DNA from: an archaeon
Lineage (GTDB): Archaea > Asgardarchaeota > Thorarchaeia > Thorarchaeales > Thorarchaeaceae
Reading direction: 5' to 3'
Length of the DNA: 32,000 nucleotides
Assembly (NCBI GenBank): GCA_024275415.1
Contig: JAJRZD010000063.1
Location: 13,035 to 45,034, forward strand
Position numbers and translations under genes: made by a program. Positions 2,827 to 24,951 of this stretch are shown here, in pieces (positions within the stretch are counted from its first letter, which is position 1; each line of letters starts with the position of its first letter). The notes beneath the pieces are model-generated. The model did no database searches, was not told the origin of the DNA, and saw nothing but the letters and a program-made list of their open reading frames with translations.

Positions 2827-5800
2827 GTGATGCTATTGACTAGTGACTCCTCGATGAAGGAAATGAACCTTCCATTTCCTCACGGTATCGAAGTGGAGCT
2901 TCAGATCATTAGAAGGGATGGCTCATGGATAAGGGGCGAAGAGATACTGGCTATCTTTGACAGACTGGTATCAAATGCAATATCACTATTGGACAAGAAA
3001 ATCAGGAAGTCCTTCGTACCATCAGTCAAAAAGAAGTTTCGACATGCCACACAAACCGAGGAAGGCGAACGGGGCTCCCGAGTCGTTGCAACATATGAAG
3101 ACCCCAATGGAGAAATCAAAGAGTTCACATTGGTCGGGCATGATCCTAATGTGACAAGTCTCACATGGATCCTTGAGATTGCAACACCACCTTGTACGAC
3201 TCTGGAAGAACTAGCGTGGTGGGTTCAGACACTCATTGCAATCTCATACGAGTCACTCCCAAAGGACGCGAATGCCACATTAATATCTACGGGGCTCAAT
3301 CCTGCACAGGAGTATTTGAAGAATCTCTCTTTCGGAGAGCACCATCACATTCTTGGGCCAGATACCTCAGAGAGGGTACGAATAGGAGTATACAATCTGA
3401 TTCGCAACTTCATCCCACATATCATCGCCCTTACAGTGAACTCGCCATTCGAAAACAAAAGGACGACAGACGAAGTGTGGGTCGATGACAAAGGCAAGAC
3501 ACGGGCACCCAAGTGCAAGAGGTCGATCAGACTTTTCAGGAACACGACCCAGCTGGGCCCGATAAATGAGTTTGAATTCATCCCCCACTTGAAAGATGCT
3601 GATGTTGAGGGTTTTGCACGCCATGTCAATAGAAGCTATGCAAGGATGGTTGACCTCTATCCCTTCACTCGCTTGAGCACAATCGAGCTGAGAGTATCTG
3701 ATACCCAGATCTCAGTTCCTAGGCGAGTCGGTATGGCATTGCTACTACAGGCACTTGCCCTTAAGGCAAAAAAGATGGTCGAAAATGGCATCGATATCCC
3801 AGAAGTGGAGGCTGCGTCGCTGGCATCGAACCGAGAAGCTGCAGTTGAGGCAGGACTCTGGGGGCCTTTCAGGGTAACAAAGACTGATCCAAAGTCCGAG
3901 TTCGCCAAGATATATAATATGAGGGTCAACGACGATGGAACCATTGACGAAAAACGGAAAAATCGTTTCCTAGGCGATGCAGTGAATTCTATGCTGTTCC
4001 TGATACGTGATGAGCTTGAGGAAATTGGCTTCATTGACAATCCGTTCGTGCAGCCGTTGTTGGTGTCAATCTATGGCAGCGAATTTGTTGCTCCCCGTAC
4101 GACAGGAGCTGACTTCCAGCTTGATGTATACGCAAAGTCAGACCTGAACCTTGTAGTTCTTCTACGAAGGCTGACAGAAATAACACGTGAGTGTTGTATC
4201 AATTGGCTCTACGACCCACTTGAAGGAACCCCACACCTACCTACATGGTTATGCTGGTGGAAAGGCGTCGAGCCAGAAATAGTAACTGAGAAAGAGCGAA
4301 TCTTTGCGGGTCAGAAAGCACATGTGTCAATCTCTATCCGGAACGTCCTTGAAAAAGATTTAGTGGATCTGACACTCACCTATACGATTGAGGACGCAGA
4401 CCGGCATGTCGTGGAACGCAATCTAGTTCCCATCATGAGGATAGAATCGGGTGAGATTTTTGTAGAACATATTGAATTCGAAACCTCGAAAGGAGTGCCG
4501 GCATACAACATCCTTGCCACGGTAGGGTTGGCGGGGCAAGAGATTCATGTTTCAGGGACAATCCAGACCTTTTGGACAAAGGCTACAATCAGACCCACTA
4601 CGACAACAATCTTCGCTGACGGGGCTACACAGATACCTTTCACGGGTGAGATTGAAACAAGTTTCCCTGACACGGAATTCTTAGCAGCGAAAGTGAGTGT
4701 TGTGTCACCTGGGCGAGAGAAAGTCCTTGCAGAGGTTGAACAGCCACTGTCAGTTGAACCTGGAGGAGTCATCTCATTCAAGAATGAAGACTTCCCACCC
4801 CTAGTGGTGCCTGATGATTTTTCTGAGGGCGTTGAGAGATGCATCCTGAGGATCAGTCTCTCAGATTCAGACGGGGAAGAGGTCACTGCGAACACATCTC
4901 GACCGTTCTATATCGGGTTTGTGCGAAGGGGACCAAAGATAATATTGGATGCGGACATAAAGGAGTCGTATAGACCGAGAGAGAAGATAATAGGAAATAT
5001 CGAGTTGAAAACTAGTGGACAAGCCATAGAAAAAGACGCCACGGCTTCGATCGTGTTCGTTGCGGATTCTGGGAGACGACACCCGATTACAACAATTCCG
5101 ATTGAGGAACTGGCAAAGGGGCCAAAATACTTTGAGTGGACGGTTCCCGCAATTCACTCAGAGAACACCTCAGAACGGACTGGTGTGCTGCGTGTGGACT
5201 TGCTCAACGCATCAGAGGTCATAAGCTCGACTCAGTCAAAACGGTTCAAGTTAGAACACATCGGTGTCAGGATGAGCATCGATTCTCTTCGTATCCCGAC
5301 CGCCACAGAGATTGGAGGGAAAATCACAGGATGGCTCCGGATACGACGGAACACGGAATCAGGAGAAAAAGCGATACTCGACTTGATCTTCAAATATCCC
5401 GATGGAGCAGAAATCCACGCATTCTCGCAGTCTATAAGACAAAGTCGCAATCTATCGGTGGCATTCGGACCAATCGAAGTCCCTGAGCCGCCATCCGGTA
5501 AGAAGTTTGACCAAGTGGATCTTGAAGCTAGGCTGTCTTATGGAGGATCTGTAATAGATACAAGGACTGAAAGTCTAAGGTTAGACGGGAAAGACGAACC
5601 GCATATGGTGCGAATATCCTTTTCTGGACTTCCCACTTTCGTTACTCCTGACGAAACACTACATGCCACCATACATGTCACAAATCTGTCCAGAGAGGAG
5701 ATGCCATGTATGCTTGCCGTACAGCTCGATACTGTAAAAGGGCCAATTCCTATCTGGCAAAAGGAGATATTGCTCAAGCCAAAAGAAACTGGGCTATATG

Positions 5801-6282
5801 CTATCAGCATTGATATCCCGTTGTCCTTGGAAATGAGTACAGCATATCTGACTGCAAAAGCCACGACCACGAAGGGAGTTACAAGGGGCTCAAAACGCCT
5901 TAAGATAAAAGCAGTTGAGGAGGCTCACTTTCATTTCAGCTACATGATCAAGGATTCCAAGGGAGTGGAGATTCCAGGTCTCGTCCCTAGAGTCACGCCA
6001 ATCAAACTGATTGTCATTGGAAAGGCAACCACCAAGGCACTAGATGATGTTAAGATTCTTCTCAGGATAATGTCCAGAAGGAAGGTCGTCAAACTCTTTG
6101 AGATAGACACCAAAGATATCACACGACGACACGATAACGAATTTGAGATAGAAATCCCTTGGACCACACCTTCAGTGGATATGGTCACAGGATTCTACAT
6201 CGAAGTATTGGTCGAACAGGGAGGGCAGATATTACCCGACCGTGCAGTAAAACAAGCACCAAAGCAATTCACGGTGTATTGA
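2827..6282 (+). CDS. Glutamate--cysteine ligase family 2 (GCS2/YbdK-like carboxylate-amine ligase) fused to about six C-terminal Ig-like beta-sandwich domains
   Basis: N-terminal ~475 aa carry GIEVELQ, ILEIAT, FGEHHHI, IALTVNSPF, TIELRVSD (GCS2 motifs). Residues ~483-1151 are repeated ~105-aa beta-strand-rich units. Start may be TTG at 2836 (AGGTGA RBS). Confidence 0.85.
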   Translation: MMLLTSDSSMKEMNLPFPHGIEVELQIIRRDGSWIRGEEILAIFDRLVSNAISLLDKKIRKSFVPSVKKKFRHATQTEEGERGSRVVATYEDPNGEIKEFTLVGHDPNVTSLTWILEIATPPCTTLEELAWWVQTLIAISYESLPKDANATLISTGLNPAQEYLKNLSFGEHHHILGPDTSERVRIGVYNLIRNFIPHIIALTVNSPFENKRTTDEVWVDDKGKTRAPKCKRSIRLFRNTTQLGPINEFEFIPHLKDADVEGFARHVNRSYARMVDLYPFTRLSTIELRVSDTQISVPRRVGMALLLQALALKAKKMVENGIDIPEVEAASLASNREAAVEAGLWGPFRVTKTDPKSEFAKIYNMRVNDDGTIDEKRKNRFLGDAVNSMLFLIRDELEEIGFIDNPFVQPLLVSIYGSEFVAPRTTGADFQLDVYAKSDLNLVVLLRRLTEITRECCINWLYDPLEGTPHLPTWLCWWKGVEPEIVTEKERIFAGQKAHVSISIRNVLEKDLVDLTLTYTIEDADRHVVERNLVPIMRIESGEIFVEHIEFETSKGVPAYNILATVGLAGQEIHVSGTIQTFWTKATIRPTTTTIFADGATQIPFTGEIETSFPDTEFLAAKVSVVSPGREKVLAEVEQPLSVEPGGVISFKNEDFPPLVVPDDFSEGVERCILRISLSDSDGEEVTANTSRPFYIGFVRRGPKIILDADIKESYRPREKIIGNIELKTSGQAIEKDATASIVFVADSGRRHPITTIPIEELAKGPKYFEWTVPAIHSENTSERTGVLRVDLLNASEVISSTQSKRFKLEHIGVRMSIDSLRIPTATEIGGKITGWLRIRRNTESGEKAILDLIFKYPDGAEIHAFSQSIRQSRNLSVAFGPIEVPEPPSGKKFDQVDLEARLSYGGSVIDTRTESLRLDGKDEPHMVRISFSGLPTFVTPDETLHATIHVTNLSREEMPCMLAVQLDTVKGPIPIWQKEILLKPKETGLYAISIDIPLSLEMSTAYLTAKATTTKGVTRGSKRLKIKAVEEAHFHFSYMIKDSKGVEIPGLVPRVTPIKLIVIGKATTKALDDVKILLRIMSRRKVVKLFEIDTKDITRRHDNEFEIEIPWTTPSVDMVTGFYIEVLVEQGGQILPDRAVKQAPKQFTVY

Positions 6283-12678: not shown

Positions 12679-13863
12679 TTGTCAGATACGAGAAGAATGT
12701 TACTGGATTTCGAAACCGATGAAGTCGGTCGAAAAGCACGGGACGATCCAAAAGTGCGCAAATCGCTCATCAAGGCTCTATCGGACACTTCAGATATCGT
12801 TAGGCAGCGTGCCCTTATTGCGACTATCGAGCTTGGTGACCCTACAATTGTGAAGGATATTGTCAAGTCGCTCAAGGACGAAGATGACGAAGTGAGAGTT
12901 GCTGCTGCCGAGTCATTGGCATACTACAGGCAGCCATCCACAATACCATATCTGTTAGAAGGGCTGAAGGACTCTAATACGTGGGTCAGATCCCACTGTG
13001 CCAACGGGCTTTCCAAGTTGATTGGCGGGCCAATCTGGGCGCGGTTGAAAGAAGAGGATGTTGACACGATACTCGCTGATTTCCCAGAGATGGATGAAGA
13101 ACAGATAAGACAGTTCATGATTGATCTAAAGGTCAGAGAGAACGAGCTCGATAAATTCATGCATTGGCGTAGGAAAAACTTCGAGATTGACATAGACCCC
13201 TCAATTATAGAAGAGCTAGAAACAAAACCACTGATTCTAGAAGGTGCGGACATCAGTGCGCCTGTGAAACCCACTTCTGCTTCGGGTATCTCAACAGAAG
13301 TAGAGGAAATCCTTGCCGAGCTTCCAGACGACATCAGAAGCACTCTACCAGAAGAGGACTTGCGACGATTGACTCCCTCCACTGCGCGAGAGCTAGTGGA
13401 CTCCTTGCTTGCATCATTCGTCAAGAAAGAAGAAGAAAAGCCAAAGAAGAAGAAAAAAGTAAGAGTCAAGAAAGTCCAGAGATCCAAGAAGAAAAAGGGC
13501 CCCACAAAGGAAGAGATGCTTGAGAAGATTCCTGAAGAGATAAGGACACAGATTCCCCCAGATGTCCTTGATGACCTGACAGTAGAGGACTTGGAAGCAC
13601 TCATATCAGCAGATAGTGACGGCGCCAAGTTGCTGCCGGATATCAAAGATGACGAAACAATAGTCAAACCGTCAAAGCCCAAGAAACACAAGAAGATGGC
13701 TGATGCACGGTTCCAGACTCTGACAGACAAGTACGGTGAGGAGAAAGCGGAGATCCTTCTCAGCATACCTGAGGACATGCTAGCCGGAATTCCCGACGAC
13801 CAGATCGAGGAGATGGACATCGATTCCCTGAGGGATCTTGCAGATGCCCTCGCACCAAGGTGA
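12679..13863 (+). CDS. HEAT-repeat protein with Lys-rich linkers and three ~33-aa C-terminal repeats
   Basis: PBS-lyase-type HEAT units (LIKALSDTSDIVRQRA, IVKSLKDEDDEVRVAAAESL, LLEGLKDSNTWVRSHCA); AGGAG RBS before TTG. Confidence 0.85.
   Translation: MSDTRRMLLDFETDEVGRKARDDPKVRKSLIKALSDTSDIVRQRALIATIELGDPTIVKDIVKSLKDEDDEVRVAAAESLAYYRQPSTIPYLLEGLKDSNTWVRSHCANGLSKLIGGPIWARLKEEDVDTILADFPEMDEEQIRQFMIDLKVRENELDKFMHWRRKNFEIDIDPSIIEELETKPLILEGADISAPVKPTSASGISTEVEEILAELPDDIRSTLPEEDLRRLTPSTARELVDSLLASFVKKEEEKPKKKKKVRVKKVQRSKKKKGPTKEEMLEKIPEEIRTQIPPDVLDDLTVEDLEALISADSDGAKLLPDIKDDETIVKPSKPKKHKKMADARFQTLTDKYGEEKAEILLSIPEDMLAGIPDDQIEEMDIDSLRDLADALAPR
13303..13845 (+). repeat. Three degenerate ~33-aa protein repeats
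   Basis: EEILAELPDDIRSTLPEEDLRRLT (from 13303), EEMLEKIPEEIRTQIPPDVLDDLT (from 13510), AEILLSIPEDMLAGIPDDQIEEMD (from 13747). Confidence 0.8.
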
Positions 13864-13869
13864 TTCTAC

Positions 13870-15174
13870 CTATTCATTTCCCCTGATAACAATGGCAAAC
13901 TCGCTTGCCAACCTACCATACCATTCGAGCAAATCACGCATGTTATCCACATGACGATAGGTTCCATTGCCGTATTGGGCAAGTGCCAACATGAGTTCCT
14001 CATCCAGTTCGCTTCGTTCGCCCAACCCTATAGTGTACATCACAAAGCGGTTGCGGTCAGGAAAACGCTCTTTCATTATCTTCAAGGGGGGAGGGCCAGC
14101 TGTCGTCATTCCATCCGTCAACAGGATAATCATTGTCGGTTTGCTTGGGTCTCCGAATGCCTCAAGCACATCTGCGGCTTTGGCTAGAGCATTCCCCATA
14201 TTCGTGAGTGTTCCACCTTCTTCTACCTTATCCACAACATGAGTGCTTATGATTTGAAGCCCTAGAGCTTTCTCACGTCCCGTACATTCTACAAAGGGCT
14301 GGACGTCACCTGTGTCTGCATTCAAGAAAGTCATCTCTTGGACTTCCTTCTCGAATGTGATGACACCGACCTTCTCTCCGTACCCTCGTCCTACCTTCTC
14401 AGCAAGGTAAAGCAAGACCGCCATTGCTGCAGCCTCGGCCCTGCTTACACTACCGCCTTCATTGAACCTATCAAGAAATGCCTGTACTTCAGGGTTGTCA
14501 CCTGCAAGATCCTTTAGTCCCTCACGAGCATGTGCTATGTCCTGAACAGGAACATCAGTAGTCTTCATCGAACCGCTGGTGTCAATGCACAGAATCGCAT
14601 TGAATGGCGTCGCGATACCGATAGTCTTGAACTGGTAACCGGTTTTTTCTTTCAAAGCCTCGAAAGCCAGCTTCGCAAAGCTCTTACCTGTAAGATTAGG
14701 TCGAGTGTTCATTATCTCTACTTTCACATCCAAGTCGGGCCAGTTGAAGGACATGCTTGGGTATACCAGTCGTCCATCAATGAGTTCCTCAAGGGAATCC
14801 ACCTTCTCTGCCGCTTTTGTGACAAGGTCTTCCGCATTCGCATCTTCAGAGAGAGGTTTGAGACCAAACTCCACATATTCGAGAGCAATCATATCACGCT
14901 CATATAGGGTGACATCTACAATATCACCTTCCATCAAAAGTGATGCTTCCAAAACCAAGGTGTCAATGTAAATCTGGTCTTCAGGTACATCATTGCTTTT
15001 TCGAATTTCTGCAGCACCCCAGAAACTGCTCTCGGGGTCTTCAAAGACGACGATGGATCCAATCTCTGCATCCAGTGTTTCAGCGACCTTCGGATTCAAA
15101 GTTGCATAACCACGAAGATCCCCACCATCTACAATCTCAAGACTTACCTTCGCGACGATCGTGATTGCCTCCAT
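13870..15174 (-). CDS. CDC48/NSF N-terminal-like (double-psi barrel + subdomain 2) domain fused to a vWA domain with intact MIDAS
   Basis: N-terminal RGYATLNPKVAETLDAEIGSIV...IYIDTLVLEASLLMEGDIVDV pattern; vWA AILCIDTSGSM, GGTLTNMGNAL, IILLTDG, MYTIGLG. Confidence 0.82.
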   Translation of the reverse strand: MEAITIVAKVSLEIVDGGDLRGYATLNPKVAETLDAEIGSIVVFEDPESSFWGAAEIRKSNDVPEDQIYIDTLVLEASLLMEGDIVDVTLYERDMIALEYVEFGLKPLSEDANAEDLVTKAAEKVDSLEELIDGRLVYPSMSFNWPDLDVKVEIMNTRPNLTGKSFAKLAFEALKEKTGYQFKTIGIATPFNAILCIDTSGSMKTTDVPVQDIAHAREGLKDLAGDNPEVQAFLDRFNEGGSVSRAEAAAMAVLLYLAEKVGRGYGEKVGVITFEKEVQEMTFLNADTGDVQPFVECTGREKALGLQIISTHVVDKVEEGGTLTNMGNALAKAADVLEAFGDPSKPTMIILLTDGMTTAGPPPLKIMKERFPDRNRFVMYTIGLGERSELDEELMLALAQYGNGTYRHVDNMRDLLEWYGRLASEFAIVIRGNE

Positions 15175-15204
15175 TATTCCTTACTTTATTCTGCTCGTTA
15201 AGGG

Positions 15205-15211
15205 ATATAAA
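15205..15211 (-). promoter_or_regulatory. TATA box of the CDC48N-vWA gene
   Basis: TTTATAT on the minus strand ~30 nt upstream of the ATG at 15174. Confidence 0.5.
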
Positions 15212-15226
15212 CAATGGTACACTGTG

Positions 15227-16732
15227 CTAGCGCCCCAAGAGCTTCGGGATAGAACCTATAAAGGGTGCCTCTTCCTTTTCATAGTTTGTGTTCTTGGTCA
15301 GATGCCTGATGATTTCTTCTCCGATATTGGCAGTTGCATAATATGTTGTTCGTACCGAATCTTTCCCTCGGGTCCGAATCGATGCAACAGTGAGCACATC
15401 GCCAGGATTCTCTCGGATCCATAAATGAGACTCGTACCCTTTGCTCTTGTTTCTCAGTGTCACGATGTACGAATCATGGTGAATGCCATTGTACCCGCCA
15501 TCCCCAACACTTCGAACTCGGGGCCATGTATTCTTGGGAGGGATCATCATATCAACTGACGACAGATCCCACTCGCTCTGATGGATGATCTGAACAAGCG
15601 CGTCTTCCACTTGTGATCTAAGAGTGCCACTCGTGTTCGGGCATGCCATTTGTTTCGAGAGAGCCTTGCTCTCAAGGCCAGAATTGAAAGGCTTCTGAAC
15701 CAATGACAGAGTATTGCCACCAAGAATACGCTGGACATCTGATAGATCCCCAGGAAAATCTCGTGAAAGAGCTTGCAAGATGAATTCGGCACCCTGGACT
15801 GAGAGGAAGCTGTAATCGGTTCCAAAAAGAAGTGTTTCAGACCAGTTTCTCGGTTGTACTCTCTCGGATGCCATCTCGAAGAGAAGGGGGATATCCTGAT
15901 CATGTAATGTGGAAGTGTCGGCTGTAAATGCAGGGTCTTTGAGGACATCGTAAAGCTTTGGTGATGCTGGGCTCATCCCGCAATGTGCCAGAATAACCTT
16001 GAGATTGCCAATTGACTCCTGATAACGAGGGTCTTCTCTCATAGTAGTCACTAATTGATGAATTCGAGTCACGGTCCGTATGTTCCGAGTATCAAACAAG
16101 ACGGGAATTCGAAGTTCTGCTGCTCGATACACGACCCGCTGAACCATCTCATCCTCTAACTCATCGATGAACAGCTGAGCCAGAGGATGTAGTTTGAGAC
16201 CTCTAAGACCAAGATCTAGGATTGCACGATCTAATTCCCGTACCGCAATATCATCATCACCACGGGTAGCATCTGTCGGATCCACTCTTGCAAATCCGAT
16301 CAACCTGCTGGAATGAGGAGCGCGTGTAGTCCAACCAGCAATTTTATCATTCGATATCTTGAAGGATGCAGAACCATCAGAGTTCTGCTTGGAATAGTCG
16401 TCAGAGTATGGGAATACTATTGTTCTGTCAACAAGCCAGCCATGCTTCATCCTACTCCAACTATCACGGCTTGAGAAAATCTTGGCGACGAATGGTGTCG
16501 GAATGGCATCCACGGGCTCAAATAGCAGCTCATCCCGTTCGATAGCCCTCTCGGCCAACCGCCTCATCTCAAACCAGAGAAGCTGGAAGAACTCGTACGA
16601 CCCTGTGGGAGTATTCCTGTGAGTCTTCTCACGTCCCATATGATGATGTGCATCAACAAGATAGAGATGAAACAGGTCATCTTTCTTGATGGATTGTTCA
16701 GGGATGTCTTCAATAGCTCGTATCACGAGCAT
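15227..16732 (-). CDS. Amidohydrolase family (Amidohydro_2-like) metal-dependent TIM-barrel hydrolase with ~150-aa C-terminal extension
   Basis: VDAHHHMG, GFARVDP, GLRGLKLHP, ILAHCG, LLFGTDY, RILGGN; GAGGTG RBS upstream. Confidence 0.9.
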   Translation of the reverse strand: MLVIRAIEDIPEQSIKKDDLFHLYLVDAHHHMGREKTHRNTPTGSYEFFQLLWFEMRRLAERAIERDELLFEPVDAIPTPFVAKIFSSRDSWSRMKHGWLVDRTIVFPYSDDYSKQNSDGSASFKISNDKIAGWTTRAPHSSRLIGFARVDPTDATRGDDDIAVRELDRAILDLGLRGLKLHPLAQLFIDELEDEMVQRVVYRAAELRIPVLFDTRNIRTVTRIHQLVTTMREDPRYQESIGNLKVILAHCGMSPASPKLYDVLKDPAFTADTSTLHDQDIPLLFEMASERVQPRNWSETLLFGTDYSFLSVQGAEFILQALSRDFPGDLSDVQRILGGNTLSLVQKPFNSGLESKALSKQMACPNTSGTLRSQVEDALVQIIHQSEWDLSSVDMMIPPKNTWPRVRSVGDGGYNGIHHDSYIVTLRNKSKGYESHLWIRENPGDVLTVASIRTRGKDSVRTTYYATANIGEEIIRHLTKNTNYEKEEAPFIGSIPKLLGR

Positions 16733-16871
16733 AGGTCGTCAGCACCTCGTGGGAGAAGAGATAGCGGTGCAAGTGATAAACTATTGCATATCTTTAGATG
16801 GATGAGATACACTTTAGACATAAAACGTTTCATTCCAACTGAAGAGCGTAGAGTAGAGGAAGATAGAAGAA

Positions 16872-19490
16872 ATGTTAGTTGTTGAGGACAGGGACACGAA
16901 CGAGGTAACAAGGTTCTTCGTGATTGACGCATATGCGAAACTAGGCTCCATCCAGATTGGAACAGATATTCAGGTCTTCGATCCTCAACGCTTACTGAGA
17001 TATTATGCACTTTTAGAAAATCAACTATTCGACTTCGCAGCACGATATTCTGAGGCTTTCAAGTATCTCCCGAGAAGAGCATATTCATACCTATCTAAAC
17101 CCCCGCTTCTTAGTGATATAACTGCAAGCCTAGCATCATCGGGAAATGATTTCTGGACAGTGGATCAATTCGTCATTCACCCGTTGACTGAGATCTCTTC
17201 AAAACCCCTTCCACGATACCAACAAAAGAACAATGTAGAATCATGTGTTAGATGGTCGACCCAGACAGGTGTCGCTCCGAGATTGTACAATGTTTCAGAT
17301 CTAGATGTGGATAGTAGCAGGTACAATTGGGCGGTGTCGATAGATGCATCGGCCCTCTCGAAGACTATGAAAAGGTCTTTGAGCAACGAACTGCTAAAGG
17401 CAATAAACCATAGTCAGCCTATCTATATCCGAATCGAGAGAAAGGAAGAAATAGCGCGCCTCCTTGAATGGCTTGTTGTCCTCAAGGACGCTGGAATGCC
17501 TAGTCCTACGATATTCCTTGCAGTGACCGAGCATAGAGGATGGGAAAACGAGCTGCTGAAACTTCTCCAGATGAAGGGGGTTCATCTGCTTTTGTCTGGG
17601 GCGACCATAGGCTCATTATCAACCCTCATCAACAGATTGAAAGATTCGGAAAGAACCGATGAGTGGTCAAAGAAATTCATGTATGCTAGCTCATATCCTG
17701 AAACCCAGAAAGGCGACAGTCTTACAGAGATTCTCAGCTTCTTTATGAGCAGGAATCTTGATGCCTCACGCATAGAGATCCAAAGGGTTCTTGGGGGTAA
17801 CATGATACAGGCATTAGCACCAATAAATGACCGCCTTACTTTTGAGCCCAGTAAGTCGTCAGTGGCTGCGGAAGGTGTGTTTGGGAAACCAGCATTTCTT
17901 GAGCTGCTTCGTCTGTTCAGATTGCTGTCCACACAGAAACAGCTTGAGATACTATCTGCGGAGATGGTGACTGATAATCAGGGAGGGCACGTTAAACTGG
18001 GCTCAATCATACTTTCGATCAGAGCATCTAAACAGAACAAGTTTCGGAAAGTCCTCATCCAACAGGAACGAGACGAATCATTGAGAGTGATTGGATGGCA
18101 AAAGCCTTTCAACGTTGCCTATCAAACAAGGGATTGGGTAACGCTACAAACCCAAGCCCGGGCATCAGTGAAAGGGCCAGTCCTAGATTCACCAAGCCAT
18201 GTTGGTACATTCAATAGGATGCTCCTTGACATCTTGGGAATACGGGACTCTGTGGGCGTATTGTCATCATTACATTATGGTATTGAAGAAACTGGGATGA
18301 AGGCTGGCTATATCGGTCTTTGCACGGAGGATGCCAAAGCAATAGGTGTGAAAGAAGGAAATCTTGTCACAGTCTTGGATGCAGATTCGAATCACCTTTG
18401 GGGTGCAATTGTACAGACCAGTCGTGGTTGCCCTTCCAAAAGAGTGGGGGTATCAAGAAACGACCTGAAGTGTTATGGCATGGACGCGTCCTCACAGGTA
18501 GACATTGTCAAATACGTAGACACATTATCCGAATGCGACAGAGTTTTGCTTACCTATAGGAGAACATTAGGCTTTACCAACTCAGAGCTTGCTGCATTCC
18601 TGCACATGACAAGCGATGAAATCATCGAGTCGGTGACCAGCCGGATAATAGGATTGGGAACTCGCTTCGTGACTGCTAAAGGTTTAGAATTAGAGGTGCG
18701 GAGAACAGCACCGCCAATAAGAAAAGGAGAGCTTAGCAAGGCAAACAATGCAGCAATAGAGATACAGCCAATAGAATTCCTAAATGAATTGAACGTGATC
18801 CTTGTGCTGGGCAACGGCAATGATATGTTGGTACGTGATGTAAAGATAACAACCCCAGAGGTGATCCGGAAATCACTTGACACATTCTCAAAAGAAATCC
18901 CTGAGATTGGCGCCTTTTTGAGTTCCATGGGAAAAATCGAGCATAGATGGAGTATCTCAGCCATATCCGCATTGGACTTGATACGCCACTTCAGAAACAA
19001 CGAATCAGAGGGGGTCATCGGCATGGTCTTGGCTGACAATATACCACACAAATTCACTATTCAGAAGAATCAGGAGCTGCAGGATTACATCAGATTCGAC
19101 AGTGATATCCAGAACGATGATATCTTCAAATCGTTGGTTTATTCAATCCTTGATGCAAAGGAGATATCCAATGAACCCACCAAACCAAGTATTCTTTTCA
19201 GGTCAATCGCTGAGATGCTAGAGGATCTCGGCAGCGATCGGCCAACATTAGTTATCCTATTTGTATCAAGGATTGACGAGATAGAGGAGATTATTCCGTT
19301 CCTACAATCAATTCGTTCTGCAAGAAACTACAAGTTACTAGTATTCGGAGTAGGAAATGATTTTGAGAAGGACAAAACGGAAGAGATGATGAAGGGCATA
19401 GATGCCAAGATCCACAAAGTGATAGAGTATTCACTATTCGAATTCCAAGGATCGGTTGTTTCTGCTATTCAGGAATTATGTCATTTCTGA
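16872..19490 (+). CDS. Catalytically degenerate fusion: pseudo-amidohydrolase + extension domain + CDC48-N-like + pseudo-vWA (paralogue of the two divergent genes)
   Basis: FWTVDQFVIHP~GWLVDRTIVFP; IQRVLGGN~VQRILGGN; DADSNHLWGA~DPESSFWGA; PEIGAFL~PEVQAFL; RPTLVILFVS~KPTMIILLTD. Metal ligands replaced. Confidence 0.85.
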   Translation: MLVVEDRDTNEVTRFFVIDAYAKLGSIQIGTDIQVFDPQRLLRYYALLENQLFDFAARYSEAFKYLPRRAYSYLSKPPLLSDITASLASSGNDFWTVDQFVIHPLTEISSKPLPRYQQKNNVESCVRWSTQTGVAPRLYNVSDLDVDSSRYNWAVSIDASALSKTMKRSLSNELLKAINHSQPIYIRIERKEEIARLLEWLVVLKDAGMPSPTIFLAVTEHRGWENELLKLLQMKGVHLLLSGATIGSLSTLINRLKDSERTDEWSKKFMYASSYPETQKGDSLTEILSFFMSRNLDASRIEIQRVLGGNMIQALAPINDRLTFEPSKSSVAAEGVFGKPAFLELLRLFRLLSTQKQLEILSAEMVTDNQGGHVKLGSIILSIRASKQNKFRKVLIQQERDESLRVIGWQKPFNVAYQTRDWVTLQTQARASVKGPVLDSPSHVGTFNRMLLDILGIRDSVGVLSSLHYGIEETGMKAGYIGLCTEDAKAIGVKEGNLVTVLDADSNHLWGAIVQTSRGCPSKRVGVSRNDLKCYGMDASSQVDIVKYVDTLSECDRVLLTYRRTLGFTNSELAAFLHMTSDEIIESVTSRIIGLGTRFVTAKGLELEVRRTAPPIRKGELSKANNAAIEIQPIEFLNELNVILVLGNGNDMLVRDVKITTPEVIRKSLDTFSKEIPEIGAFLSSMGKIEHRWSISAISALDLIRHFRNNESEGVIGMVLADNIPHKFTIQKNQELQDYIRFDSDIQNDDIFKSLVYSILDAKEISNEPTKPSILFRSIAEMLEDLGSDRPTLVILFVSRIDEIEEIIPFLQSIRSARNYKLLVFGVGNDFEKDKTEEMMKGIDAKIHKVIEYSLFEFQGSVVSAIQELCHF

Positions 19491-19744
19491 AATTGAACTA
19501 GTCGCTCAATGGCTGACAGTTGGATATCCAGTTGGTTTGCTTGGGTTTCTACGTCATCAATCAGGGTCTGGATATTTTCAAGCAGATCAATTATGTTGGA
19601 CTCGATAGACTCGCTAGACACTGATTCATTCTCTTTAGTCATCTTCAAGATTAAACGCTCAACATCGCGAATCCGTCTATTCAAATCGAGTAAGGTTTCC
19701 AGAGAGTCTAGATGTGAAAGAAGAGCGTCCATCAACTGCATCAC
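19481..19744 (-). CDS. Small coiled-coil protein (87 aa)
   Basis: Heptad L/I pattern throughout; start overlaps the upstream stop codon (translational coupling). Confidence 0.7.
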   Translation of the reverse strand: MMQLMDALLSHLDSLETLLDLNRRIRDVERLILKMTKENESVSSESIESNIIDLLENIQTLIDDVETQANQLDIQLSAIERLVQFQK

Positions 19745-20922
19745 CTAATATCCCTACTAAGAGTTTCAAGTCTTTTCTCAAGATGCCTTAGACGTTCATG
19801 AAGAGCATCCATCCGATCAATCGTTTCTTTTATCCGTGATTCGAGATGAGTGGGTATCTCCTGTGGGGAATCTTCCTGCGATTTGTTGCTAAGACGTTCT
19901 AGTTCACTCAGTATCGCCTCAGCCCGTTCCACGCGCTTCAGAGTATCGTAGACATCGATGTCGCTCAAGATATGCTCAATCTTCGAGAGAATTTTCTTTT
20001 CCTTTGATGTTACTTCATGAGTTTCTCTGGCAATTGGTGCGAGTCTGTCATCTTTCAGGTCGTCGATAATCGTATGGGGCGAACCTGTAATCTCTTCGGA
20101 TTTTGCCCATAATGGATTCAAAACAAGAGCACCGAATTCGTCCATGTCTTCCTGTCCCGAGATTGTGCATGCCATAATGTTTCGGAGTCCATCCCAGAAG
20201 AAAGACTCTAACTTGGATCCTCGGCGATAGAAACAAGCAGCTATTGGGTCACGAATCAGAAGGTTCTCAACCATCTGGACAACCCAGTTGCTTTGTAGAA
20301 GTGAAAGGATTATACAATCGTTCGTGCGACCTTCTTTGAATAGGATATTATCTGTTCCCGATGAAGAAACACGCTCGGGAATCCAGCTTTTGGGGTTGGC
20401 CCAATTAGATGGCATACGGATTGCGAACCCTGCGGAGTCCCCGGAAGTTGCAATATGTTCCATGAGGTAGTCAATATAGTCGATTGCAGGTTCGGGGTAT
20501 GTTCTCTCAGGAAGCCTATCCGCTTCATGCTGGAGCACGAACCTTACAATCTCATGGGGCGTTTGTCCTTTAATCCTGAATACGATAAAGCTCCGCTCAA
20601 CTGATTCACCGTCCTCGAATACTCTGAATGCAATAACCAGCTTCTCATCAGAAATGCCACTCGCCCCGTAGATTATGATCCCAAAGTCGTCATGGTGAGA
20701 GATGCCCCTATCAAGCACAGTACGGATAGTGATGCTTAGGGGGATCACGTAATCAACTTGGTTGGGTTTTGACCCTAGGGCACCAGTGAAACCTTTTCTA
20801 ACAGGACTGTCATCTAACCAGCCAGGTGTCAGATGATTCCCGACAAGCCTGACAGCAAGGTATCCTACGAGTTCATTATTAGCATACATGGAATCCAGTG
20901 CATCTATGAGGCTCTCAGACAT
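19741..20922 (-). CDS. Hypothetical protein: alpha/beta N-terminal region and C-terminal coiled coil
   Basis: GGAGGTG RBS before ATG at 20922 (not 20982); TTTATAA box ~60 nt upstream; C-terminal heptads (IDRMDALHERLRHLEKRLETL). Confidence 0.8.
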   Translation of the reverse strand: MSESLIDALDSMYANNELVGYLAVRLVGNHLTPGWLDDSPVRKGFTGALGSKPNQVDYVIPLSITIRTVLDRGISHHDDFGIIIYGASGISDEKLVIAFRVFEDGESVERSFIVFRIKGQTPHEIVRFVLQHEADRLPERTYPEPAIDYIDYLMEHIATSGDSAGFAIRMPSNWANPKSWIPERVSSSGTDNILFKEGRTNDCIILSLLQSNWVVQMVENLLIRDPIAACFYRRGSKLESFFWDGLRNIMACTISGQEDMDEFGALVLNPLWAKSEEITGSPHTIIDDLKDDRLAPIARETHEVTSKEKKILSKIEHILSDIDVYDTLKRVERAEAILSELERLSNKSQEDSPQEIPTHLESRIKETIDRMDALHERLRHLEKRLETLSRDIR

Positions 20923-21152
20923 TTGATACACCTCCAATCTTTTTCCAGAAACTGAGAATGTCATTGAAGCGAAAGGACGCATTATAAAGCGGTGTCATGT
21001 TCTTTGTCCATATCCTTCCTTCGCGGTTCTTGTGAGGCTTGTTCGCAATCAATTTCCCAGCTCCTGATAGGACATCCCATATGCATCCGATTGCCGATAA
21101 TAACCTTCTGACTGAGATCCATCAGATATCCGATACCATTACACAACGGATT

Positions 21153-22295
21153 CTAGTACACACGGGTAGTGTATATCTTGCTTGCGATTGCCTTAGAGCC
21201 GTAATATACCTCGACTTTCAGACTAGCCTTTTCCTTAGACTCTGTCATGGGAACAAGGCTAAGATCCAACTGCCGGTCGCCCCTAGGACCAATCTCATGT
21301 TGCTCATTGGTTATCTCTGAAACACCGTCTTCTGTTGCCAATGTGACAATCACTCGAATGCCGATGATGGTTGAGCTGGGATTTTTCACACGAATCTTAT
21401 AGTTGAAGGCTCTCCCTGCAATCAATGCATCAGGTACATCTCCTAGAGAAACCTCAATACCAATTTTGCCTGCGGTAAGTGGCCGACCACGGGGCCATCG
21501 TGGTATTCTCTCCAACTCTAGGAGACGAGAAAGTGATATCTTCAACTGTCGAAGTTCCATGCCTAATTGGTCAGCTGCCGTCCCAATATCAAAGGAGCCA
21601 TCATTTGCCTCATAGTAATCGAGAACACGACGGTCGGACTCGATGAGGTCGCTCATTCCCTCAAGGATTTTCAAAATAGCGGCAGGTAGTTCATGTGCCT
21701 GAGAGAGAGAAAAGTAATTCCCATTTTCCATCGATTCTGCAATCTTCCTGAATGACTTTTCTACTAGGGGATTGCAACCGATGATGAACCCAAAGACAGT
21801 CGATCCATAGTCTACAACTAGCTCTTGGACTTCATTGCACGGATCATATCCTTTAGGACAGCCATCAGGGAAGTAATCATCACTAAGAGAGTTGTATTTA
21901 CGCCCATGAGGCGGAGCATCGCCCACAAGCAGAAGAACCTTGTATGCGTCCTTATCCCATGAGAGCTTCGTACGGGCATCATGCAACCCATCGGCTACTG
22001 CCTCGGGAGTGTCACCACCTTCTGAGGGGCGCAGTCGTGATATCTCATCATGGACTTCCTTGATGCGTGCAGAAAAATCAAAGACCTTGGTAGTATAGGT
22101 CCTGTCCTGTGGCGGATGATCCCTGTATGAAACGACCGCAAAGCGTATGGCAAGACCTTCTGTCTTCGTCACAATCTTGTCTACGATGTCAAACAGTGAA
22201 TCCTTGACCGCACGGATGTCATCTTTCATTGAACCGGTGGTATCAACCACAAATGCTACATCTATCTTGGCTGTGTGAATACAGATCCACCCCAT
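21153..22295 (-). CDS. vWA domain (intact MIDAS) + winged-HTH-like segment + C-terminal Ig-like domain
   Basis: DVAFVVDTTGSM, RFAVVSYRDH, GGDTPEAVADGL, LLLVGDAPPH; FDIGTAADQLGMELRQLKISLSRLLEL; IAGRAFNYKIRVKNPS...LKVEVYYG. Start ATG 22295 preferred over 22403. Confidence 0.85.
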   Translation of the reverse strand: MGWICIHTAKIDVAFVVDTTGSMKDDIRAVKDSLFDIVDKIVTKTEGLAIRFAVVSYRDHPPQDRTYTTKVFDFSARIKEVHDEISRLRPSEGGDTPEAVADGLHDARTKLSWDKDAYKVLLLVGDAPPHGRKYNSLSDDYFPDGCPKGYDPCNEVQELVVDYGSTVFGFIIGCNPLVEKSFRKIAESMENGNYFSLSQAHELPAAILKILEGMSDLIESDRRVLDYYEANDGSFDIGTAADQLGMELRQLKISLSRLLELERIPRWPRGRPLTAGKIGIEVSLGDVPDALIAGRAFNYKIRVKNPSSTIIGIRVIVTLATEDGVSEITNEQHEIGPRGDRQLDLSLVPMTESKEKASLKVEVYYGSKAIASKIYTTRVY

Positions 22296-22381
22296 GTTAG
22301 TTTGAGTCTGTGGGCAATTAAGCCTTTTCAGGAATAGGAACGAAGGAGATTTTAATGGATTCGGTGACGAGATAGGTGTGA

Positions 22382-22762
22382 ATGACGATGAGCGAGATAC
22401 CAATTACTTTTGAGTTTGAAGGGGGAATAACCCTTGACGGAGTTCTGGACAGGGTGATGGCCCCATTGATCATTGAGGAATTGAAATCTAGAATGCCAAT
22501 AGAAGGCAGGGCTGCATTTCTCAGGGGTGAGATGAAAATCACATTGAGTATCAATAAGGGCAATCTAAAACCTACTAAAAGCGTCAAACGAGGAGATATT
22601 GCCTACATGCCACTAGGGGACTCGCTATGCATCTACCTACAGGACATGTCTACATTTAGCCAAGTGACTGTCATTGGTAGAATCAGGTCAGCTGATGAAG
22701 ATCTTGATTCCTTAACTGTAGTTCGAAGAGGGAGTCTGGCGACGATAAGGTTAGATGAATGA
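22382..22762 (+). CDS. Cyclophilin-like family protein (Cyclophil_like / TM1367-like)
   Basis: VKRGDIAYMPLGDSLCIY matches the GDiaYWppG.alcIF family motif; 126 aa. Confidence 0.8.
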   Translation: MTMSEIPITFEFEGGITLDGVLDRVMAPLIIEELKSRMPIEGRAAFLRGEMKITLSINKGNLKPTKSVKRGDIAYMPLGDSLCIYLQDMSTFSQVTVIGRIRSADEDLDSLTVVRRGSLATIRLDE

Positions 22763-22764
22763 TA

Positions 22765-23316
22765 TCACAAACGTTGTAGGCTCTTCAAAAGATCTTCATT
22801 CGCATCTCGTTCAACTTCAGATGGGTCTACAATCATGCCGGACTCGTACGTTTCGAGAATCACCTCGAATCCAGAGTCAGCCACTCTCTTGAACCCCTTG
22901 CTTGAAAGGGATCTGACCTTCAAATGAGTAGTAGCGAATTCAGTCTTTTCTGAACTCGTAGTCGGTGGGACATCAAATCTAAGCTTGGAGGTCGTTCTTC
23001 TGAGAGCTTCTCGGGTTTCAGCCAGTTGTGTCTGCAAGTCCTTGCGCTCCTTGCGTTCAAATTCGAGTTGACTTTTGATGTCTTCAAACTCACTACGCTC
23101 TACATAGTCCTTTAGCTTGTCAATCCAGACTAGCGTAGTTCCGTTGAATCTACGACTCGTGGCAACATAATCCATTGCCTTTAGTACGGCTACAACATCG
23201 TAGACTCTACGTTTTGGGACTCCTAGCATTTCAGCTATCTCATCGCTCCGAATCCCTTCCTCCCCGGCGTTTTGAAGGAGCAAGATAGACCTCCGAGCAA
23301 GCTCGACCAATTTCAT
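22765..23316 (-). CDS. E2F/DP-like winged-helix transcription factor with coiled coil and beta-rich C-terminal region
   Basis: IAEMLGVPKRRVYDVVAVLKAMDYV resembles the E2F/DP signature AE.L.V.KRRIYDI.NVL; followed by a ~35-aa coiled coil; GGGGTG RBS before ATG 23316. Confidence 0.78.
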   Translation of the reverse strand: MKLVELARRSILLLQNAGEEGIRSDEIAEMLGVPKRRVYDVVAVLKAMDYVATSRRFNGTTLVWIDKLKDYVERSEFEDIKSQLEFERKERKDLQTQLAETREALRRTTSKLRFDVPPTTSSEKTEFATTHLKVRSLSSKGFKRVADSGFEVILETYESGMIVDPSEVERDANEDLLKSLQRL

Positions 23317-23358
23317 ATTCCAAAGCACCCCATACAGAATCCGATGATAGGCTCACCT

Positions 23359-23375: not shown

Positions 23376-23619
23376 TTCCCAAGGTACTATTTAATGGTTT
23401 GTGTTATTCCGTTTTTTGTTGTCGGTTTTTCGCGGGTAATACAGCTTTCGAAAAATGTTAGTTAAGATTTTTAGATAGTGTCTTCAAAAAATCGAAATCA
23501 TACTCCATTGAGAGTGGCAGAGTGATTGGTATTTGAGGTGATGTGTACACCGACAATTTCTTAACAGGGCATAAGGAGGGCCAGCCCAGATTTGACATTA
23601 CGCCACGAGGGTGGATGCA

Positions 23620-24951
23620 ATGAGTCGAAAGAAAGTAATAATTATGGGTGCTGCGGGTCGCGACTTCCATAATTTCAACGTGTTTTTCAGAAACAACGAG
23701 AATTACGAGGTTGTTGCTTTTACTGCTGAACAGATTCCTGGCATAGGTGACAGGATATACCCTCCCGAACTCTCAGGGGAGTTGTATCCCGATGGAATCA
23801 AGATATATCCTGAGGAGCAACTGCCTGAGCTGATCGAGAAGTTCCAAGTGGAACAATGTATTCTTGCCTACTCGGATTTGTCATACGACACTGTCGGACA
23901 TAAAATCGCATGGGTGAACTCTTTAGGAGCAGACATCCGACTAATGGGAACAAATACCACCATGATCAAGAGCAACAAGCCCGTTATCGCTGTGTGTGCA
24001 GTCAGGACAGGTTGTGGGAAAAGTCAGACCTCGCGACGAGTAAACAAGATCCTCGTTGATATGGGTCTCAAACCTGTGAACATCAGACATCCGATGCCAT
24101 ACGACCCAGACTTGACAACACAGATTGCTCAGCGTTACGAAAAGCTCGAAGATATGGACAAATACAACTGCACCATCGAAGAGCGCGAAGAATATGAACC
24201 TATGATCAACATGGGTGTTATCCTATACGCTGGAGTTGACTATGGCAAGATTCTGGAGCAGGCTGAGCAAGAAGCAGACGTGATTACTTGGGACGGAGGA
24301 AACAACGACTTCCCATTCTACAAACCAGACCTTCTCATCGTGATTGCAGATCCGCACAGGCCCGGACATGAGATCGAATATTATCCTGGTGAAACAAACC
24401 TGAGGATGGCCGATGTGGTTGTAATAAATAAGGTCGAAACAGCTGACTATGAAGATGTCGAATATGTACGAGAGAACATCCTCTGGGCAAACCCAGATGC
24501 GATGGTCATCGATGCTGCATCACCTGTTGTTATCGAAGACCTTAGCATTATCAAGGGCAAAAGAGTTATCGTTGTGGAGGACGGCCCTACAGTGACCCAT
24601 GGTGACATGCCATACGGCGCAGGGTATATCGCTGCACGTAAAGCAGGAGCAATCATAGTAGATCCTCGGCCCTTCGCGGTAGGAAGTATAAAAGAAACTT
24701 TCGAGAAGTATTCACACCTTGAAGATGTCCTCCCTGCAATGGGTTATGGGAAGAAACAGATCGAGGAACTTGAGAAGACTATCAATGCAGCAGATGTTGA
24801 TGCTGTCGTTATTGGTACTCCAATCGACCTTGGGAAGCTGATAAAGATCAACAAGCCAGCCACAAGGATTCGATATGATCTTCAGGAAATCGGAAGACCG
24901 AATCTTGAGGATGTCCTAATGGACTTTGTAAAGAAACATAATCTGAAATGA
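23620..24951 (+). CDS. COG2403 P-loop protein, cyclic 2,3-diphosphoglycerate synthetase-like / arginine synthetase (ArcE)-like
   Basis: KKVIIMGAAGRDFHNFN, YPPELSGELYPDGI, Walker A AVRTGCGKS, IRHPMPY, IEEREEYEP, WDGGNND, EDGPTVTHG. Confidence 0.88.
   Translation: MSRKKVIIMGAAGRDFHNFNVFFRNNENYEVVAFTAEQIPGIGDRIYPPELSGELYPDGIKIYPEEQLPELIEKFQVEQCILAYSDLSYDTVGHKIAWVNSLGADIRLMGTNTTMIKSNKPVIAVCAVRTGCGKSQTSRRVNKILVDMGLKPVNIRHPMPYDPDLTTQIAQRYEKLEDMDKYNCTIEEREEYEPMINMGVILYAGVDYGKILEQAEQEADVITWDGGNNDFPFYKPDLLIVIADPHRPGHEIEYYPGETNLRMADVVVINKVETADYEDVEYVRENILWANPDAMVIDAASPVVIEDLSIIKGKRVIVVEDGPTVTHGDMPYGAGYIAARKAGAIIVDPRPFAVGSIKETFEKYSHLEDVLPAMGYGKKQIEELEKTINAADVDAVVIGTPIDLGKLIKINKPATRIRYDLQEIGRPNLEDVLMDFVKKHNLK

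Follow-up and report, generated by a model that had tools for sequence, protein, structure and literature searches.

Among the described relatives of the system considered here are the Amidohydrolase_2/COG2159 proteins (PF04909), including 3nur, 3ij6, gamma-resorcylate decarboxylase (3s4t) and LigW (4inf/4qrn), with an HxH motif, two further His residues and an Asp as metal ligands. The N domain of Cdc48, p97, VAT and NSF (PF02359) is a double-psi beta barrel. vWA domains with a metal ion-dependent adhesion site (MIDAS) are represented by ANTXR2, ITIH1, Rpn10 and the BatA/BatB-type bacterial vWA proteins, and scaffold-type vWA domains of eukaryotes are without this site. When proteins encoded by separate genes also occur as a fusion, this counts as classical evidence that they interact. 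In this study we describe a three-gene module that joins these elements in a stretch of 32,000 nucleotides (contig JAJRZD010000063.1 of assembly GCA_024275415.1, positions 13,035 to 45,034 of the forward strand; the whole stretch is called the window, and positions are counted from its first letter) from an archaeon of the family Thorarchaeaceae. The module comprises a Cdc48N-vWA protein (P0001), an Amidohydrolase_2 protein (P0002) and a fusion protein (P0003) that appears to be an inactive paralogue of both, and it sits in Asgard archaea, the archaeal lineage closest to eukaryotes.

The feature is real and conserved, and there is no description of it in the searchable literature, in which no mention of an Asgard vWA-amidohydrolase module or of an Asgard DEPDC5 homologue was found; the functions of fusion and pair are inferred. 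We consider the whole to be best explained, with a probability of about 0.55, by an ancient dead fusion with an autonomous non-catalytic role, a hydrolase-vWA heterodimer and a ligase-hydrolase cycle in which that heterodimer would take part. As strong computational evidence, the fusion indicates that two Asgard proteins with very high conservation work together physically as a unit: a metal hydrolase of an unusual type and a Cdc48N-vWA protein without ATPase. The fusion resembles pseudoenzyme paralogues in being catalytically dead yet retained under selection, and Rosetta-stone fusions in reporting a physical interaction between two separately encoded proteins. It differs from both in being a rare case of the two subunits of an enzyme-adaptor pair inactivated jointly in a single chain, and in that some genomes have retained the dead copy but not the active pair. 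Such very long retention, even after the loss of the active pair, points to a non-catalytic function.

Homology and metal sites of the fusion protein

The three open reading frames (ORFs) have the coordinates and lengths given in a preliminary description made from the sequence alone. P0001 (434 aa; 13870-15174, minus strand) and P0002 (501 aa; 15227-16732, minus strand) form an operon, which is separated from the fusion P0003 (872 aa; 16872-19490, plus strand) by a divergent intergenic region of 139 bp (16733-16871) that holds AT-rich stretches. P0001 consists of a double-psi barrel (aa ~9-90), a second subdomain and a vWA domain with an intact MIDAS (DTSGS, aa 198-202), and was matched by Pfam VWA_2 with 43.6 bits (cut-off 27). 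P0002 was matched by PF04909 Amidohydrolase_2 with 40.8 bits (cut-off 26.4), has all its metal ligands intact and carries an extra C-terminal beta domain. The Pfam scan of P0003 returned zero matches. More than 200 homologues share 50-75% identity with P0002, and the identity of P0001 across Thorarchaeota is about 80%.

Pairwise BLASTP of P0003 against P0002 (E 0.005 over 77 aa) and against P0001 (E 6e-4 over 240 aa) was marginal and too weak to decide, and family alignments of 12 fusion proteins (A1), 23 hydrolases (A2) and 16 vWA proteins (A3) were therefore built. With hhalign, A1 columns 8-439 aligned with nearly all of A2 over 397 columns (probability 98.4%, E 5e-15), and this alignment takes in the additional beta domain at the C-terminus of the hydrolase; A1 columns 479-866 aligned with nearly all of A3 over 385 columns (probability 99.3%, E 1.2e-20). 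This comparison of hidden Markov models (HMMs) bears out the claim, first made by eye, that the 872-aa ORF is homologous in order to the hydrolase and then to the vWA protein, and the order is indeed the transcription order of the minus-strand pair. Among 1.84 billion representative proteins, the A1 HMM detected about 30 clusters of full-length fusions (828-907 aa); its positions 1-400 matched stand-alone DAHHH-type amidohydrolases of ~480-510 aa, and its positions 470-850 matched stand-alone Cdc48N-vWA proteins of ~420 aa (library-wide E 1e-8 to 1e-18, down to 5e-18). A word-based homologue search had given 13 relatives, and the view of the fusion as a rare family was overturned by the full HMM search and the genome survey given below. 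In the window's own genome of 3.5 Mb, P0001 and P0002 were the only matches of A1 besides the fusion itself. At the level of sequence profiles, P0003 is shown to be paralogous, within one chain, to the products of a unit of two genes, which encode an Amidohydrolase_2 enzyme and a Cdc48N-vWA protein.

The label CDC48N-vWA, which had been assigned by eye, also holds. A broad profile of the Cdc48N-vWA family (A4, 28 sequences) matched the N domains of Cdc48A, TER94 and p97 in the PDB (E 7e-5 to 4e-3, residues 11-86), and 13 of the 28 A4 members were matched by Pfam CDC48_N (PF02359; best E 4.7e-5); the P0001 sequence alone gave no CDC48_N match in Pfam. The double-psi barrel is shared by the P0001 family and the Cdc48/p97/VAT/NSF N domain, but in P0001 it is joined to a vWA domain with no AAA+ rings after it, and it is predicted to lie on the rim of an enzyme active site, not on a UBX/ubiquitin-like fold. 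The vWA domain of P0001 differs from those of the vWA/MIDAS proteins named above by the Cdc48-type N domain that precedes it. The nearest solved relatives of the hydrolase family are remote Amidohydrolase_2 members (best E 0.0016); P0002 shares their HxH, His, His and Asp ligands but differs in its extra C-terminal beta domain, in its great distance from the solved members and in a predicted need for a Cdc48N-vWA partner on the active-site face. The N half of the fusion is a profile-level homologue of the same family, with the difference that it is without any metal ligand.

In the AlphaFold2 (AF2) model of P0003 the mean predicted local distance difference test score (pLDDT) was 73. The N half (aa 1-440; 16872-18191, plus strand) is predicted to comprise an Amidohydrolase_2-like barrel and a C-terminal beta domain (aa ~355-410); it was modelled poorly over aa 1-150 and moderately over aa 150-440, with strand-helix alternation at aa 150-315 followed by a four-strand sheet. 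The model was confident (85-95) over aa 440-870. This part contains a Cdc48-N-like double-psi barrel with a second subdomain (aa ~455-637; 18234-18782, plus strand), which was also aligned to the N part of P0001 by hhalign and whose Cdc48-N-like portion has a pLDDT of 85-90, and then a vWA fold (aa 638-872; 18783-19487, plus strand) from which the MIDAS motif is missing. The fold-search listings for P0003 were filled by its vWA domain and not by its N half. The AF2 model of P0001 was moderate (pLDDT 66).

The full ligand set of stand-alone P0002 consists of HxH after strand 1, His at strands 5 and 6 and Asp at strand 8, and D27, H29, H31, H182, H250 and D306 are invariant both in A2 and in 16 diverse stand-alone hydrolases. 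The N half of the fusion keeps one of these positions, D27 (as D19), and H29 is replaced by Y21, H31 by K23 (HxH to YxK at aa 21-23), H182 by Q182, the beta-6 His H250 by G243 and the beta-8 Asp D306 by S274. In the C half, the MIDAS residues D198, S200 and S202 correspond to G647, G649 and D651 (DxSxS to GNGND), and D354 corresponds to S799 (TD to VS). All stand-alone Cdc48N-vWA proteins examined have DxSxS at the expected place, and D354 is invariant in them. The earlier statement that all metal ligands are lost in the copy is confirmed by these replacements of five hydrolase ligands and the MIDAS, set against the invariant ligands of the stand-alone forms. Two of the motif pairs listed in the preliminary description were off by one residue (AHCG aligns with SGAT and GTDY with ASSY), and the conclusion is unaffected.

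Across the fusion family, the MIDAS motif is lost in all Thorarchaeota members and HxH is lost in 35 of 36 members, the sole keeper having Asn at the position of the beta-8 Asp in the motif table. Relics were seen in distant members, namely P0285 from Jordarchaeia, in which HxH is kept and Asn stands in place of the beta-8 Asp, and P0333, in which DxSxS is kept, and they would fit a stepwise decay from an active ancestor. The old active site in the fusion is occupied by a conserved YPETQxGD motif (aa 275-282), and Y275, P276, T278, Q279, G281, D282, H221, N121 and W128 are invariant in A1. Judged by this conservation, the former active-site region is not left to drift.

These residues bear on the alternative that the fusion is still an enzyme, working through a new metal-independent centre around YPETQxGD, H221 and E199. 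LigI is an Amidohydrolase_2 member that works without metal, which provides a precedent within the family; Y275, P276, T278, Q279, G281, D282 and H221 place the former active-site region among the most conserved parts, and the ratio of nonsynonymous to synonymous substitution rates (dN/dS) of the fusion is as low as that of the active hydrolase. However, every catalytic-position residue that is invariant in the stand-alone enzymes has been replaced, the beta-8 Asp included, and the replacements at the first His, H182 and the beta-8 Asp vary between fusion lineages, unlike a catalytic set. We regard a metal-independent enzyme as quite improbable. In the explanation preferred here, the two modules of the dead fusion would still be arranged in the closed form proposed for the active pair, around a pocket that is remodelled yet highly conserved (YPETQxGD, N121, W128).

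Selection on the fusion and its origin

The survey of the phylum covered a sample of 301 genomes, of which 76 belong to the window's family. By A1 search the fusion was found in 70 of these 76, almost always with an intact frame of ~870-920 aa, and full-length intact frames were present in ~65 genomes. In roughly 50 of the sampled family genomes (counted from listings) the fusion and the vWA gene are on one contig, on opposite strands and ~2-3 kb apart, and the gene order of the window was seen at loci L001-L004. Jordarchaeia/Freyarchaeota and an Asgardarchaeum-like lineage carry the fusion as well. Cdc48N-vWA proteins are common across the phylum, with matches at E≤1e-20 in 173 of the 301 genomes. 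Another large Asgard family (f9; e.g. G162:C28:30752-31981) has its Cdc48N-vWA match inside open frames of ~700-760 aa, which means a large extension.

Selection was estimated from species pairs within one genus (dS 0.7-1.0), the same genome pairs being used for all three genes. The dN/dS was lowest for the vWA protein (0.013-0.027), and the ranges of the fusion (0.076-0.103) and of the hydrolase (0.087-0.100) overlapped; purifying selection is thereby shown to act on the fusion as strongly as on the active hydrolase. In-frame stops were observed in two genomes. The fusion of G152 (C3:785286-787911) has two TGA and two TAG codons in the main match and two more TGA codons in an N-terminal fragment, and that of G075 (C1:542839-545460) has one TGA in frame; these may represent decaying copies or sequencing errors.

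A similarity due to chance or low complexity, or a neutrally drifting pseudogene that is still open by luck, would be in keeping with the marginal result of pairwise BLASTP alone, with the four in-frame stops in G152 and with the single TGA in G075. Both readings were ruled out by profile and library-wide E-values of 1e-15 to 1e-20, by the full-length intact frames in ~65 genomes and by the dN/dS of ~0.08-0.10, and their probability is negligible. The same dN/dS values and the presence of the fusion in 70 of 76 family genomes uphold the earlier claim that the 2.6-kb frame is maintained.

In maximum-likelihood trees, 13 fusion C halves formed one group apart from 23 stand-alone proteins (support 85/84), and 13 fusion N halves formed one group apart from 17 stand-alone hydrolases (support 100/99). 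The internal branching of the fusion group was congruent between the N-half and C-half trees, and P0001 grouped with Odin/Asgardarchaeia and Korarchaeota proteins, not with the fusions. Since the fusion halves group apart from the stand-alone proteins and P0001 groups elsewhere, the fusion can be regarded as an old paralogue lineage. The trees fit one ancient fusion, which would predate the divergence of the lineages in which it occurs (Thorarchaeota, Jordarchaeia and the Asgardarchaeum-like lineage). The preliminary description had proposed an inverted duplication of the local pair. A recent local event of this kind was rejected on the trees of both halves, in which the fusion halves stand apart from all stand-alone homologues, together with the occurrence of the fusion in Jordarchaeia.

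The hydrolase-vWA pair and the role of the fusion

A complex of P0001 and P0002 was predicted with A2 and A3 as inputs and with three controls. The ipSAE values were 0.76, 0.67 and 0.66 (median 0.67), and the best control gave 0.00; in a benchmark, 58 of 80 solved complexes and 2 of 110 mismatched pairs scored at least this high. The runs had at least 80% of contacts in common, and the partner pLDDT was at least 79. On P0002 the predicted interface lies on the active-site face (33-34 just after HxH, H250, 275-283, and 309-315 just after D306), and on P0001 it involves the base of the vWA domain and, in the Cdc48N barrel, residues 16-19, 48-51, 72-81 and 106-113; no MIDAS residue is among the predicted contacts. 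Conservation within Thorarchaeota was higher for interface residues than for other residues (0.82 vs 0.66, permutation p<0.001; 0.90 vs 0.82, p~0.005). The model supports binding between P0001 and P0002 but does not show it, and the earlier suggestion that the hydrolase and vWA modules engage physically gains support from the fusion itself and from this controlled prediction.

It is moderately supported that the stand-alone hydrolase and the Cdc48N-vWA protein form a heterodimer, of which the fusion would be the Rosetta stone, and, equally moderately, that the Cdc48N barrel and the vWA base sit on the active-site face of the TIM barrel, as the model has it. Because the predicted interface covers this face, the adaptor may gate the hydrolase or deliver substrate to it, the substrate probably being a carboxylate-bearing peptide or protein. 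A concrete interface at an enzyme active site is thereby predicted and is open to testing.

A GCS2-like carboxylate-amine ligase of 1151 aa with a long beta-rich tail and a weak Pfam GCS2 match is encoded in the window at 2827-6282 (plus strand), and it is the orthologue of a gene at locus L009 (35% identity, E 6e-111). At L009 and L006, both Asgardarchaeum-like, a GCS2-type ligase gene lies directly between the hydrolase-vWA pair and the fusion; at L008 (Heimdallarchaeaceae) the vWA gene is immediately preceded by a shorter GCS2 gene; and at a Jordarchaeales locus the ligase gene is ~7 kb from the fusion. These arrangements suggest a ligase-hydrolase-adaptor module, in which an amide bond formed by the GCS2-type ligase, whose gene is linked to the pair in several Asgard classes, might be undone by the hydrolase, a weakly supported step. 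Co-occurrence of the ligase with the fusion or with the pair showed no clear pattern in a look at five genomes, and judged by gene presence the tie of the ligase would be to the pair at best. The 221-aa ORF upstream of the ligase gene (2161-2826) was considered as the counterpart of a 207-aa gene at the same position of L009 and rejected, as no similarity was found.

Genomes that carry the fusion by itself bear directly on its role. In G005, G016 and G055, which are 98%, 95% and 97% complete and belong to three genera, the fusion is intact (862, 886 and 874 aa, respectively) with a dead HxH, and whole-genome searches with A2 and A3 returned no stand-alone member of the hydrolase or the vWA family. 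In all three the fusion lies directly downstream of a HEAT-repeat gene, on the same strand and ~100-125 bp apart. The Jordarchaeia loci likewise carry the fusion without an adjacent pair. In G290 (88% complete) the hydrolase gene adjoins the fusion and the vWA gene was not found, probably owing to a fragmented assembly. No high-quality family genome with the pair but without the fusion was seen. Since three genomes keep the fusion without the active pair, the fusion would therefore have a role of its own. The idea that it exists only to regulate the active paralogues is weakened by this gene content, as is the proposal of the preliminary description that the fusion and the two active proteins form an obligate complex.

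Along the lines of the preliminary description, the fusion may instead be a regulatory or scaffolding subunit in one hetero-oligomer with the active hydrolase and vWA proteins, for example by replacing the active heterodimer in a higher-order assembly and so controlling or localising the enzyme. Such a role would accord with the divergent transcription from a common 139-bp region, with the recurrence of the same arrangement in roughly 50 sampled family genomes and with the established existence of inactive amidohydrolase-fold subunits that support active partners, of which the inactive DHOase-like subunit of Pseudomonas ATCase is an example. It is hard to reconcile with the three high-quality genomes that keep an intact fusion and have no stand-alone protein of either family, and with the Jordarchaeia loci; we hold this possibility to be a serious one, though doubtful.

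A protein with HEAT repeats always flanks the module. In the window it is a 394-aa protein encoded at 12679-13863 on the plus strand (Pfam HEAT_2, E 1e-28), and this constant gene neighbourhood suggests it as a candidate partner of the fusion. In our preferred explanation, the dead fusion would be a non-catalytic binder or scaffold with its own role, probably exercised with the adjacent HEAT-repeat protein, and would not merely be a regulator of the active pair.

Several points weigh against this explanation. The partnership with the HEAT-repeat protein is drawn from gene adjacency alone, and the barrel fold of the fusion N half from profile alignment only, the pLDDT of aa 1-150 being below 50. 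The score of the P0001-P0002 complex is the model's own confidence and was obtained from alignments built in this analysis. Nearness to the active site is a confounder of the interface conservation, which is not seen in broad alignments. In the window the ligase gene lies ~7.6 kb upstream of the pair, and the ligase was not found with the query used in two of the three fusion-only genomes, nor in two genomes with neither fusion nor pair. Finally, long-branch attraction among fast-evolving sequences could inflate the fusion clade.

Resemblance to DEPDC5/Iml1 and remaining genes of the locus

In Foldseek searches of the PDB with the P0001 model, DEPDC5/Iml1 chains occupied the top 9 ranks (E 1e-10 to 2e-9, ~430-450 columns), and with the P0003 model they took ranks 1-5 and, in all, 9 of the first 11 places (E 1.5e-12 to 3e-9); the two models had been built independently. 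The matched chains came from human, budding yeast and a human GATOR1-fission yeast chimeric complex, and they stood ahead of p97 N-D1 chains, which were themselves strong matches. The TM-scores of these DEPDC5/Iml1 matches were low (0.13-0.26). The VIA-align table was filled by canonical vWA domains; DEPDC5 was not listed and is unrankable there, and the vWA domain of the P0001 family was closer to canonical vWA domains than to the SABA domain. The IML1 model (PF12257) had no match anywhere in the genome at E≤10, the NPR2 model (PF06218) gave only noise on other contigs of the genome (E 0.2-0.35), and no DEPDC5 chain was present among the best 60 of 165 matches of the A4 profile to the PDB.

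According to a review (PMC8534245), the N-terminal domain (NTD) of DEPDC5 is similar to the N domain of Sec18/NSF, and SABA to a domain of the COPII vesicle protein Sec23; the order of domains therefore matches that of Cdc48N-vWA. NPRL2-like longin proteins have been reported in Thorarchaeota by Liu et al., with no DEPDC5 homologue reported (bioRxiv 10.1101/2020.10.19.343400). The NTD-SABA part of DEPDC5/Iml1 (Sea1) in GATOR1/SEACIT is alike in two-domain order to P0001 and to the C half of the fusion. The differences are that the SHEN, DEP and C-terminal domains are absent, P0001 ending after the vWA domain at 434 aa, that the neighbours of P0001 are hydrolase and ligase genes and not longin subunits of a GTPase-activating protein, and that no sequence signal with the Cdc48N-vWA family was found, either by PF12257 in this genome or among the 60 PDB profile matches listed. 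The resemblance in these models is best taken as a common layout and not as a demonstrated relationship.

A more far-reaching proposal is that the Asgard Cdc48N-vWA protein shares descent with DEPDC5/Iml1 NTD-SABA and that the ligase-hydrolase-adaptor module is a reversible amide-tagging system; we consider it unlikely. If it were true, the GATOR1 nutrient-sensing scaffold would be the descendant of an archaeal enzyme adaptor, and the MIDAS-less, ligand-free half of the fusion would be a living example of the passage from a metal-dependent adaptor to a pure scaffold. A resemblance that reflected descent would bear on the origin of eukaryotic nutrient signalling.

The preliminary description had also linked the module to AAA+ ATPases. 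By Pfam, no AAA+ or MoxR family was found in P0001-P0003 or in the other 29 ORFs scanned in the 32-kb window, an ABC transporter subunit (497-1555) being the sole ATPase among the ORFs scanned. A MoxR/AAA+-dependent system was rejected on this result and the proposed link was not borne out; P0001 differs from MoxR/AAA+-linked vWA systems in having no MoxR or other AAA+ partner nearby.

Downstream of the fusion there is a conserved set of minus-strand genes, encoding an 87-aa coiled-coil protein (19481-19744), a 413-aa protein of no known family with a coiled-coil C-terminus (19741-20982) and a further vWA protein (VWA_4; 21153-22403); orthologues of the set occur at equivalent positions of L001 and L003. 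The N-terminal sequence of the 413-aa protein reads by eye like the start of a Roadblock or longin domain, which is a suspicion, and Pfam gave a weak ZapB match alone. ESM Atlas feature searches returned no usable match for this protein or for P0001, and the Atlas shape search returned vWA clusters only. A third Cdc48N-vWA-like gene (383-387 aa, similar to P0348) lies in L001 (10926-12089, minus strand) and L003 (12075-13226, minus strand), between the VWA_4 gene and the 372-381-aa orthologues of the 413-aa gene; it was not found at this position in the window's genome, and the A1 profile search of that genome gave no further copy. The genes that follow the module encode a cyclophilin-like protein (22382-22762, plus strand), an E2F/DP-type winged-helix protein (22765-23328, minus strand) and a 446-aa P-loop-like protein (23611-24951, plus strand), and their order is conserved across the Thorarchaeota loci. 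On the Asgardarchaeum-like contig, a gene for an Arf-family small GTPase (L006:11037-11702, minus strand) lies ~0.5 kb downstream of the fusion, which may be a coincidence.

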